43,215 bases of DNA from a virus: the UHGV virus genome UHGV-0324072; one strand, written 5' to 3'. The translations under genes were made by a program, and so were the position numbers. This document shows, one piece after another, positions 6,519 to 17,978 of this stretch. The notes beneath the pieces are model-generated. The model searched no databases. It was not told the DNA's origin and saw only the letters and a list, made by a program, of their open reading frames with translations. Each line of letters opens with the position of its first letter. The stretch's first letter is position 1.

Positions 6519-6555
6519 TACGCTGCTACACAGCAGCGTATCATTTTTCTCATTT
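6519..6555 (+). terminator. rho-independent terminator
   Basis: TACGCTGCT-acac-AGCAGCGTA then TCATTTTTCTCATTTTTG. Confidence 0.55.
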
Positions 6556-6662: not shown

Positions 6663-6691
6663 TCATTTACACAAACGAGAGGAGAGATAAT

Positions 6692-6961
6692 ATGGTACAG
6701 AGATATGAGGTAAAAGCGTGGGGCCTGCCAGAGCCTGAGATGGCTGAGTACGCATACGGCGATTATGTAGAGTACGACAGCTATAAGGAACTGGACGACT
6801 ATTACCAGGAACGTCTAGCCGACGCCGACAAGGAAATAGAAGGGCTTGTGTCGAGACTGGCAGAAGTAAACGCCGAGCTACAGAAATACAAAGACCAGTA
6901 CCCTGATTACGTCGAGTGCGCGAACTGCGGGTCGGTTACACATGTGGAGGGGGTGGAGTGA
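6692..6961 (+). CDS. hypothetical protein (89 aa)
   Basis: ORF track; RBS GAGGAGAG. Confidence 0.5.
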   Translation: MVQRYEVKAWGLPEPEMAEYAYGDYVEYDSYKELDDYYQERLADADKEIEGLVSRLAEVNAELQKYKDQYPDYVECANCGSVTHVEGVE

Positions 6962-7254
6962 TGTCGTTAGCAACTGACATCCTGAAACGAAGCGGCCTTG
7001 CGCCGCTGTCACCGAGAGCGAAGACACGTATACACAAGCGTCGCCGTAACGTGCTGTACCCAGAGATACAAGAACGGCGTAAAGCTATCCGCGCCTGTGG
7101 ATTCCAGAACGGAAAGGCCGTGAATCTCGGTGAGTTTAAAACAAAGGAACGCGCAGCTATCGCGAACCGGCTATTTAATTACTGGAAATCGCTGGGGTAC
7201 GATGATATTCCGACGAAACCACAGAGACGACAATACATCTGGAGACATAAATGA
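6961..7254 (+). CDS. basic hypothetical protein (97 aa)
   Basis: ATG 6961 overlapping upstream stop; track start 6916 is an alternative codon. Confidence 0.45.
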   Translation: MSLATDILKRSGLAPLSPRAKTRIHKRRRNVLYPEIQERRKAIRACGFQNGKAVNLGEFKTKERAAIANRLFNYWKSLGYDDIPTKPQRRQYIWRHK

Positions 7255-7691
7255 CTACTATCGCGTTTGACGGAAAGACAATGGCCTGTGATACCCGTGT
7301 TGTGTGCGGGAGTAACTGTTACAACACAGACACAAAGATATACGAGAACGAATTTGTTGTTATTGGGGCGGCTGGCGATGCAGGGGTTGGTATCCTTTTA
7401 GTGGAGGACGATAGTATTTTAGTGCCTAAGCACTACGATTTTGATTTCTCTGCCTTGGTGTGGGTTAAAGACATCGAAACGTTGTGTAGGGTGGAGTTCT
7501 ATAAATCTTGGGATTGTGCTCTTAGTTTGGTTATTCAGATTGCGGACAGCTTTTCCGCCGTTGGTTCAGGCGCCCCTTATGCCCTAGCGGCTATGGAATG
7601 TGGGTATTCGGCGCAAGGTGGTGTAGCAGTTGCATCGAAGTTCTACCCTGACACCGGCGGCAAGATTATTACCAAACAACTATTAGGATAA
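7251..7691 (+). CDS. HslV/proteasome-beta-like N-terminal nucleophile (Ntn) hydrolase (146 aa)
   Basis: N-terminus MTTIAF (Thr directly after Met) and AVGSGAPYALAAM resemble HslV TTIV and IGSGGPYAQAAA; ATGA coupling to upstream gene. Confidence 0.45.
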   Translation: MTTIAFDGKTMACDTRVVCGSNCYNTDTKIYENEFVVIGAAGDAGVGILLVEDDSILVPKHYDFDFSALVWVKDIETLCRVEFYKSWDCALSLVIQIADSFSAVGSGAPYALAAMECGYSAQGGVAVASKFYPDTGGKIITKQLLG

Positions 7692-7750
7692 TTCCTAACC
7701 GTGCTATCCTCCAGTTACTGCATACTTAATACGCACCTGGAGGGTTCATC

Positions 7751-8059
7751 TTGGATAAATTTACTGAAACAGTGACTGGGTGGCTTCTGGCAGCCGCACT
7801 AGCTGGTGGGGTAATCGGACTACGACAACATAAGTCCGCTATTTCCGGCCCTATCGACGGATTCTGCTTTATTGCAACTGGCTTCACTTGCGCCGTATTT
7901 GGCGCGCCTCTCGCCGCTCAATGGTTCGGTATTACCGGAGAGCGCGAGATAGCTGGCCTCGGATTCATCATCGCAATTCTCTGGATGCCCATCTATTCCC
8001 GTCTCTCCGGTATCGTCGCCGGAGAATACATCGCACGTCGAGGAGGCACAGATGAATGA
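7751..8059 (+). CDS. putative holin (three predicted transmembrane segments)
   Basis: TTG start 7 nt after GGAGGG; hydrophobic stretches GWLLAAALAGGVIGL, FCFIATGFTCAVFGAPLAA, IAGLGFIIAILWMPIY; sits upstream of endolysin. Confidence 0.45.
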   Translation: MDKFTETVTGWLLAAALAGGVIGLRQHKSAISGPIDGFCFIATGFTCAVFGAPLAAQWFGITGEREIAGLGFIIAILWMPIYSRLSGIVAGEYIARRGGTDE

Positions 8060-14491: not shown

Positions 14492-15145
14492 TTAACGTAT
14501 ATTAGCCGCACATTTACGCACAACCCGAGGTATCGCCTCTTTCAGTTCACCCCATGTATTAACGGCCTCCATGTCAAGAAGTGTCACCAGAGCTTTCTGG
14601 ATGTCACTTCGCAACTGATTGGTCTTCGCATCCTGAGAGTCCCATGTATCGAAACCCGTTACGTCGCGGATATCTACGGATTCCTTTACCGCTTTAGCCA
14701 CCTGTATGAAGTGTCCACTGTGGCCAATTCTTCCCTCCGTGCGCTCAATCATTCGACTAACGGCAGCGTTAAGCTCGACAAAGCTCACCGCGCCAATGTT
14801 TCGTAGTTCTACCTGCCGTTGTGTGATAAAGCGGTCGATAACGAGGAAATGGAAATAGGCGCTGTATTGCTCAGCAATATATACTGCCAGATGGAGACAT
14901 GCAAAGGTGCGACCGTTTCGGCCTTTCGTCGCCCTTATGGCATTCTCGATTCCGAGTTGTTTTTCGCATTCCTCCTTGAAAATCTTGAAGCCATCCGTTG
15001 CCATGACCTGGCGAAGCTCTCTTGCCCCCATGCCGTTGTCTAAACGCCAACGGTTCATCTGGTCAACCAGCTCGTTTACGTTAATAAAGTTTTCACGGTC
15101 AAAAGTGATTTCTCCATAAGGGAACTCTAATGTTTGCAGTTTCAT
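14492..15145 (-). CDS. KilA-N domain protein (217 aa), reverse-oriented insertion
   Basis: KGRNGRTFACLHLAVYIAEQYSAYFHFLVIDRF resembles the KilA-N core; ATG 15145 with AGGAG RBS. Confidence 0.5.
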   Translation of the reverse strand: MKLQTLEFPYGEITFDRENFINVNELVDQMNRWRLDNGMGARELRQVMATDGFKIFKEECEKQLGIENAIRATKGRNGRTFACLHLAVYIAEQYSAYFHFLVIDRFITQRQVELRNIGAVSFVELNAAVSRMIERTEGRIGHSGHFIQVAKAVKESVDIRDVTGFDTWDSQDAKTNQLRSDIQKALVTLLDMEAVNTWGELKEAIPRVVRKCAANIR

Positions 15146-17400: not shown

Positions 17401-17787
17401 ATGAATCTTAAAGCAACTGTCGTAGCAGGAGCATGTTTCATCATCCTGGTTTACACACACGGCATCTACCAGTATCGCAGCGGATGGAACGAAGGCCGGG
17501 CTAATCTCGTTTCGCAGCAACAGCAGAAAGCACAGGCTGAGTTAGCGAAGAAAACACAACGGCAGCAGCAGGATGAATCGAAGGCCGCCGCCGCTGACAA
17601 CGAAGGCAAGACGAAATCAGAGGTGATTACCCGTGAAGTCGTTAAGTACATTAAAACGCCTGGTCGCAGCGTGTGCACTTTTGACCCTGAGCGCGTGCAG
17701 CTCAAGTCCCGCGCCGTCGCCAACGCCAATTCCATCCCCGGATACGACGATGATGCAGCCGCCGTGCAAACTGGCGCAGCCAAGTAG
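17401..17787 (+). CDS. i-spanin (Rz-like)
   Basis: N-terminal transmembrane segment TVVAGACFIILVYTHGIY then Gln/Ala-rich coiled-coil region; contains the embedded o-spanin ORF. Confidence 0.55.
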   Translation: MNLKATVVAGACFIILVYTHGIYQYRSGWNEGRANLVSQQQQKAQAELAKKTQRQQQDESKAAAADNEGKTKSEVITREVVKYIKTPGRSVCTFDPERVQLKSRAVANANSIPGYDDDAAAVQTGAAK

Positions 17788-17896
17788 CGACGCTGATGAG
17801 GATTTGGCCGTCGACGTTCAGAATGCTGAATGCGTACGGCAACTGAGACTGAAAGTGTTCATGTTGCAGGATTACGTGAGGAATATTCTGGAATAG
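17633..17896 (+). CDS. o-spanin (Rz1-like lipoprotein), +1 frame, overlapping 3' end of i-spanin
   Basis: signal peptide with lipobox LTLSAC, proline-rich PAPSPTPIPSPD, Cys residues. Confidence 0.55.
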   Translation: MKSLSTLKRLVAACALLTLSACSSSPAPSPTPIPSPDTTMMQPPCKLAQPSSDADEDLAVDVQNAECVRQLRLKVFMLQDYVRNILE

Positions 17897-17978
17897 TTGC
17901 CTTGCATGTTGGAATAATTTATTCTTGACATGTAAATCCGGGTGGCCCGGGTTCCAACGTCCAGGGGACATACTGACT

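Follow-up and report, generated by a model that had tools for sequence, protein, structure and literature searches.

The PPH gene, its fold and its predicted active site

The stretch of DNA analysed here, referred to as the window, comprises 43,215 nt of the virus genome UHGV-0324072, which derives from a coliphage of the genus Kagunavirus (Guernseyvirinae). The gene in question is predicted to encode a proteasome-like hydrolase with an N-terminal threonine nucleophile, belonging to the phage family PPH. A preliminary description of the window had placed an open reading frame (ORF) at 7251-7691 on the plus strand, encoding 146 amino acids (aa) that begin with MTTIAF and include AVGSGAPYALAAM, and all of this was recovered from the sequence. 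The ATG of the gene overlaps the TGA stop of an upstream gene for a 97-aa protein as ATGA. We regard the start codon as confirmed, since Met-Thr opens 143 of the 146 aligned family sequences and the alignments with homologues begin at residue 1 on both sides. The 2.3 kb around the gene show an identity of 98.6% to phage 590B and of 97% to the BASEL phage Bas73. The gene has already been annotated and its family already described, and the finding is therefore not new: near-identical proteins are deposited as "ATP-dependent protease" (590B, QVR48619.1) and as "peptidase HslV family protein" (Bas73), and in AY299121.1 gene 50L of phage Xp10 is annotated as "putative peptidase of the HslV family".

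The 146-aa protein matched phrog_1040 ("peptidase HslV family") with E = 4.8e-32. Searched as a single sequence it yielded only sub-threshold matches in Pfam, NCBIfam and the PDB; Pfam Proteasome (PF00227) scored 14.9 bits, below the gathering score of 22.4, and PDB sequences were reached with E = 0.09-1 (BPH 0.09, HslV 0.6). Because of this weakness a profile or a structure model was required, although for some members of the PPH family a PF00227 match is precomputed. An exhaustive search among 1.84 billion representatives at 50% identity gave 727 relatives, nearly all of them 135-155 aa long and aligned from residue 1, and a profile search gave 1221 clusters at 90% identity. The family profile, built from 110 diverse members, matched solved structures of HslV (3.5e-11), of archaeal and eukaryotic proteasome beta subunits (6e-11 to 2e-10) and of BPH (2e-10) about equally well.

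On the AlphaFold2 model, computed from the 110-member family alignment (mean predicted local distance difference test, pLDDT, 95.6; predicted template modelling score, pTM, 0.90), the protein has the fold of proteasome beta, HslV and BPH. This is the alpha-beta-beta-alpha fold of N-terminal-nucleophile (Ntn) hydrolases of proteasome type, by which the Proteasome-like Ntn hydrolases (MEROPS T1) are defined, and 39 viral structure clusters in BFVD share it at E ≤ 0.001. DSSP assigned helices to the model only at residues 46-51, 108-116 and 121-131 and a final strand at 139-143. Helix H1 is thus truncated to residues 46-51, an acidic loop (52-65) replaces H2 and the C-terminal S12/H5 is absent; there is no propeptide, as the family starts with Met-Thr.

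Regarding the catalytic residues, conservation was counted in 146 aligned sequences, i.e. the query and 145 representatives of 50%-identity clusters, and in a set of 122 close homologues. Residue equivalences were taken from hhalign with T. acidophilum beta (probability 91%) and E. coli HslV (97%) as references. Both reference sequences were validated by canonical residue numbering: E17, K33, G47, S129, D166, S169 and G170 fall correctly in the former and, checked by hand, F54, F57, A79, K80 and Q114 in the latter. The predicted nucleophile, the downstream Lys and the Gly-Ser-Gly loop, for which a conservation check had been proposed, are all near-invariant or invariant (Table 1), and the catalytic residues are invariant across the 122 close homologues, 120 of which carry the nucleophile threonine. 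For the probable oxyanion-hole glycine the two references disagree, with E. coli HslV placing Gly39, instead of Gly42, opposite its Gly45. We treat this as a local shift of three residues and take Gly42 as the probable equivalent of Gly47, because it is invariant, aligns to the archaeal Gly47 and lies at the right spacing from the catalytic Lys (13 residues, compared with 12-14 in HslV and proteasome). Thr135-Gly136 is part of the family motif F-D-x-x-T-G-G. In the second shell Ser106 and Thr135 are present, and Ala103, Ala111, Met115, Gly118, Ala124 and Ala128 are further near-invariant positions of the family.

Table 1. Coordinates of the PPH gene, its predicted active-site codons and adjoining features in the window (family counts out of 146 aligned sequences)
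Feature	Position	Strand	Basis or remark
PPH-family gene, proteasome-like N-terminal-threonine hydrolase (predicted)	7251..7691	+	146 aa plus stop
Shine-Dalgarno sequence GGAGA	7241..7245	+	5 nt 5' of the ATG at 7251; read from the sequence
Codon 2, Thr, equivalent of proteasome Thr1; predicted nucleophile after Met1 removal	7254..7256	+	143/146 family, 120/122 close homologues
Codon 14, Asp, equivalent of proteasome Asp/Glu17	7290..7292	+	144/146; hhalign to Glu17 of T. acidophilum beta
Codon 29, Lys, equivalent of proteasome Lys33	7335..7337	+	146/146; opposite Lys33 in both reference alignments
Codon 42, Gly, equivalent of Gly47; probable oxyanion-hole glycine	7374..7376	+	145/146; hhalign to T. 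acidophilum beta
Codons 105-107, Gly-Ser-Gly, equivalent of the G128-S129-G130 loop	7563..7571	+	146, 137 and 146 of 146; hhalign
Codon 132, TAC (Tyr), Asp166 position; private D132Y	7644..7646	+	Asp in 134/146 of the family; hhalign
Codons 135-136, Thr-Gly, equivalent of Ser169/Gly170	7653..7658	+	Thr 106/146 (Ser 21, Cys 18), Gly 134/146; hhalign
Segment missing from the PPH-less phages Bas74 and K1G	7253..7680		BLAST against Bas74 and junction sequences; shared deletion junction
Gene for the 97-aa protein (phrog_9632)	6961..7254	+	TGA stop within the ATGA overlap; conserved in Guernseyvirinae with or without PPH

The two points on which the preliminary description had let its idea of an Ntn hydrolase stand or fall both came out in its favour: the fold was recovered with high confidence, and the Thr, Lys and Gly positions are in place. 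Its likeness to HslV and the proteasome has to be narrowed, as it holds for the proteasome-type fold and the catalytic set and not for HslV proper. The cutoffs of the HslV equivalog models were missed widely (TIGR03692, 11.6 against 157.75 bits; NF003964, 11.3 against 137 bits). Because these cutoffs were missed, H1 is truncated, H2 is absent and the window encodes no unfoldase, we class the protein, on its sequence and its model, as proteasome-like and not as HslV proper. By its match to the published family description, taken up at the end, we assign the gene to PPH.

One position of the active site is unusual in this phage, a point that the preliminary description had not picked up. Compared with the Bas73 gene there is a single difference in 441 nt, a G>T exchange at 7644 that leads to D132Y, and no synonymous change. 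Position 132 is Asp in 121 of the 122 close homologues. The Tyr132 allele was found on Logan contigs of at least three runs (SRR5239737, SRR5239738 and SRR5239746), and we therefore regard it as a genuine variant that did not arise through faulty assembly.

Genomic setting and distribution

In both Kagunavirus and Jerseyvirus the genes follow each other in the order small accessory ORFs, 97-aa gene, PPH, holin, holin, endolysin, small ORFs and terminase. The "early gene array" to which PPH had initially been allotted is roughly right; more exactly, it is the last gene of a rightward, nin-like early accessory cluster and abuts the lysis cassette, which lies directly downstream. The 97-aa protein encoded upstream is basic, has no Pfam match and was found in 481 phage records across Guernseyvirinae. 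In its C-terminal half we noted by eye a resemblance, as yet unverified, to AP2-like DNA-binding modules of homing endonucleases. As an obligate partner of PPH the 97-aa gene was rejected, because it persists in genomes from which PPH has been deleted. A two-gene module of PPH with short upstream ORFs that overlap its start, as they occur in Kagunavirus, in Klebsiella phage IME346 and in a Variovorax prophage, was likewise rejected, the ORFs not being homologous.

The PPH gene is an accessory one. Bas74 and K1G, the latter representing the type species, lack it through a deletion with identical junction, which leaves the last ~12 nt of the PPH ORF in place, and despite this loss the lysis cassette of Bas74 is 99.6% identical to that of the window. 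With the 97-aa gene used as marker of records, PPH was present in about 37 of 115 Kagunavirus-like records (about 32%) and in 258 of 358 Salmonella (Jerseyvirus-like) records (72%). Where the gene is present, pairwise ratios of nonsynonymous to synonymous substitution rates (dN/dS) range from 0.06 to 0.15. It is thus dispensable and under purifying selection where present. Phages Bas70-76 reportedly differ little in their behaviour towards the immunity systems that were tested (PMC11990801); HslV and proteases go unmentioned in the same paper, which ties no phenotype to the PPH gene.

No HslU-like or Clp-like ATPase or other AAA+ unfoldase was found in the window, the only P-loop ORFs being the large terminase, a helicase and a primase-helicase with AAA_25 match, and none was found in Bas73 or adjoining PPH in 13 sampled relatives. 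The designation of the gene as an orphan with no HslU-like ATPase nearby is in agreement with this. No neighbour of PPH recurs among the sampled relatives, and PADLOC gave no match for the PPH protein or its upstream neighbour. In Xp10 the gene shares a leftward non-structural cluster with 45L, which encodes a transcription inhibitor, and in VpV262 and a phAPEC8-like phage it lies amid metabolic and accessory genes. In three prophage or phage contigs it closes a nin-like region, with the terminase following immediately or with YbcO, RadC, Sequestin and (faint) Acb2/Tad1-like genes as neighbours. Unlike most of these contexts, the homologue in a Burkholderia vietnamiensis prophage (L009, 8001-8435) is found between capsid/HeH/DnaT_2-like genes and the tail terminator. 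In Falsiroseomonas sp. CW058 (L015, 8001-8450) the homologue is surrounded by genes for succinyl-CoA ligase and malate dehydrogenase and by rpsA, cmk and aroA, with no phage genes nearby; such a bacterial, non-prophage context was noted for a few genera by Fuchs et al. (PMC8665760).

Several further elements of the window deserve mention. A terminator-like hairpin is located at 6519-6540, after a DUF551 gene, and a weak promoter-like site at 6666-6693; these signals could mark the start of a transcription unit that comprises the genes for an 89-aa and the 97-aa protein, PPH and the lysis genes. Between the PPH stop and the TTG start of the holin gene at 7751 we noticed an inverted repeat, CCTCCAG...CTGGAGG, forming a hairpin (7706-7745; minimum free energy -19.7 kcal/mol, z = -2.3), the 3' arm of which contains the GGAGG Shine-Dalgarno sequence of the holin gene. 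It is kept in Bas74 and K1G and may serve in the control of holin translation. Going by the Bas73 annotation, the lysis genes are split: the head module includes Rz/Rz1-like spanin genes at about 17401-17900, flanked by the decoration gene and the scaffold gene and separated from the holin-endolysin cassette by ~9 kb. The annotation of the near-identical phage Bas73 lists no prohead protease, in line with what had been stated for the window, whose head module encodes both a scaffold protein and a major head protein. On the minus strand at 14492-15145 an ORF of 217 aa, which matches KilA-N below threshold (20.4 against 23.8 bits), lies between the portal gene and a Mu-F-like head morphogenesis gene; these two genes are only 36 nt apart in Bas73, which marks the ORF as a lineage-specific insertion or moron.

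Proposed function, the Tyr132 allele and alternative readings

The explanation that we consider best overall, and on balance probable, is that PPH is a compact stand-alone threonine hydrolase of proteasome type, an accessory enzyme independent of any unfoldase. The structural and enzymatic interpretation offered in the preliminary description finds support here in the predicted fold and in the near-invariant catalytic positions. Host methionine aminopeptidase would remove Met1 and thereby expose the alpha-amine of Thr2. Threonine is a permissive second residue for Met removal by this enzyme, and E. coli HslV matures likewise by Met removal. Thr2 as the nucleophile, together with Lys29 and Asp14 and assisted by the oxyanion hole at Gly42 and by Ser106, would then hydrolyse peptide (amide) bonds in the manner of the proteasome, with no need of an unfoldase. 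Only certain peptides or unfolded proteins, from host or phage, would probably serve as substrates, and the activity would tune infection without being essential. Assembly is conceivable as a ring, as in HslV and BPH, or as a monomer, as in connectase.

Regarding the allele in the window, analogy with the proteasome suggests that it is probably attenuated or inactive, because Asp132 is near-invariant and corresponds to the Asp166 of the proton shuttle. In the proteasome, the Thr1 amine receives a proton by way of Asp166 and Ser129; the activity of yeast beta5 falls drastically with D166N, and catalysis by the archaeal proteasome is abolished with D166A (PMC4792962).

Several observations weigh against this account. 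The closest relative to have been characterised, BPH, was inactive in vitro on standard substrates (PMC5777263), so that peptidase activity of PPH is not guaranteed. The searchable literature holds no enzymatic, structural or genetic experiment on any PPH member. Scans for promoters and terminators did not exceed shuffled controls, and the timing of expression is deduced from gene order only. As to the substitution, hhalign places a Cys at the Asp166-equivalent position of E. coli HslV; as HslV works with this residue, D132Y would not necessarily be inactivating, and the Tyr132 allele has persisted in several samples.

The same substitution gives rise to the alternative that survives best, to which we allow somewhat less than an even chance: the window may carry a recently inactivated allele that is heading for loss and encode no active enzyme at all. 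D132Y as the sole difference from Bas73, unaccompanied by a synonymous change and at a position held by Asp in all but one close homologue, would fit such a recent event, as would the effect of the D166A and D166N mutations and the fact that Kagunavirus genomes can do without the gene and have often lost it by deletion. It is opposed by the intact ORF and by the function of HslV without Asp at the equivalent position; recovery of the allele from at least three runs further argues that it meets no strong counter-selection in the short term.

A more specific version of the stand-alone hydrolase would be a substrate-specific threonine protease or peptide ligase, independent of an unfoldase, that is directed against a host factor, e.g. 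an immune effector or a ubiquitin-like conjugate. We rate this as unlikely in its specifics, but it would explain the variable, nin-like location, where neighbouring genes have Pfam matches to Sequestin and (faintly) to Acb2/Tad1-like families, as well as the presence/absence polymorphism, the strong purifying selection where the gene is present and its dispensability on laboratory hosts. Rather unlikely, too, is a non-degradative enzyme, which could be a connectase-like sequence-specific ligase or transpeptidase or an amidohydrolase whose amide substrate is not a protein, to which the lack of general protease activity in BPH (PMC5777263) would lend itself.

That the protein is a surrogate for HslV, with HslV-like rings docking on host HslU and redirecting ATP-dependent proteolysis during infection, appears improbable to us. 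The GenBank label "ATP-dependent protease" suggests as much, E. coli HslV was the better of the two hhalign references, and the PPH/RPC/DPH group is essentially proteobacterial (Fuchs et al., PMC8665760). The wide failure of the equivalog models, with 11.6 instead of 157.75 bits, speaks against it, and so does the loss of the helices that form the HslU pocket. The pocket for the C-terminal tail of HslU consists of Phe54 and Phe57 in H1, Ala79 and Lys80 in H2, and Gln114 (PMC6429459); in our model H1 comprises no more than residues 46-51 and there is no H2, and hhalign places HslV residues 59-86 mostly opposite gaps in the phage protein. In addition, the D-x-x-T-G-G motif is proteasome-like, HslV having Cys at its first position, and the equally close relative BPH has no unfoldase (PMC5777263).

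A lysis-linked protease that processes holin, antiholin or spanin, or sets the timing of lysis, is suggested by the position of PPH 59 nt 5' of the holin-holin-endolysin genes in Kagunavirus and Jerseyvirus and, weakly, by the signals at 6519-6540 and 6666-6693 that could join PPH and the lysis genes in one unit. Nevertheless, we hold it to be very improbable: Bas74 and K1G keep the same lysis cassette without PPH, the gene does not lie beside lysis genes in distant relatives, and the signal scans stay within the range of shuffled controls. The first two of these points led us to reject lysis linkage as a feature of the family as a whole or within the genus. Phages with a separate scaffold, such as P22, T7 and SPP1, often need no maturation protease. 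This general knowledge, the position of PPH outside the structural module, which the window shares with most relatives, the viability of phages with the same head genes and no PPH and a fold unrelated to known prohead proteases make it hardly credible that PPH is a virion or prohead maturation protease filling the gap of the unrecognised prohead protease, in spite of the Bas73 annotation and the placement in the Burkholderia prophage.

Proteasome-like enzymes are central to regulated proteolysis, and with 727 clusters at 50% identity the PPH family is a large one. Because the family occurs in small, genetically tractable coliphages, with Bas73 carrying PPH and Bas74 naturally lacking it, the locus offers convenient access to the part that a minimal proteasome homologue with no ATPase plays in the course of infection. 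D132Y, as a naturally occurring allele, is moreover a ready test of the proton-shuttle role of Asp166 in a minimal scaffold.

Comparison with known systems

In comparison to HslV (ClpQ), the phage protein is ~30 residues shorter, and the truncated H1 and missing H2 together correspond to the HslU-docking surface. Where HslV reads C-x-x-T-N, the phage family shows the proteasome-type D-x-x-T-G-G, and no HslU is encoded by the phage. The 20S proteasome beta subunit (MEROPS T1) is much larger and differs from the phage protein in having a propeptide, H2, H5 and an alpha-ring partner. BPH (PDB 5ovs, 5ovu; PMC5777263) comprises ~190-200 aa with both H1 and H2, compared with 146 aa and no H2 in the phage protein, and possesses a long acidic pore loop between H2 and S7 and a tetradecameric double ring. 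Connectase (PDB 6zw0, 8jtu) resembles the phage protein in its proteasome-like fold and in the loss of the flanking helices, and acts alone on specific substrates.

The closest agreement is with PPH as described by Fuchs, Alva and Lupas (2021, PMC8665760), a family of ~140 residues without H2, without C-terminal S12/H5 and with no propeptide, found in Caudovirales and prophages and rarely in a genuine bacterial context. With its 146 aa the phage protein is similarly compact, free of insertions and devoid of S12/H5; the second helix is missing in the description and in our model alike, and the beta-sandwich core with Thr1/Asp17/Lys33/Gly47 and no propeptide is predicted for it as well. The distribution also corresponds, with 298 phage records at E ≤ 1e-5, prophage contexts and a single housekeeping context. 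At the level of the family we found no difference from PPH; it is only this allele that has Tyr instead of Asp at position 132.
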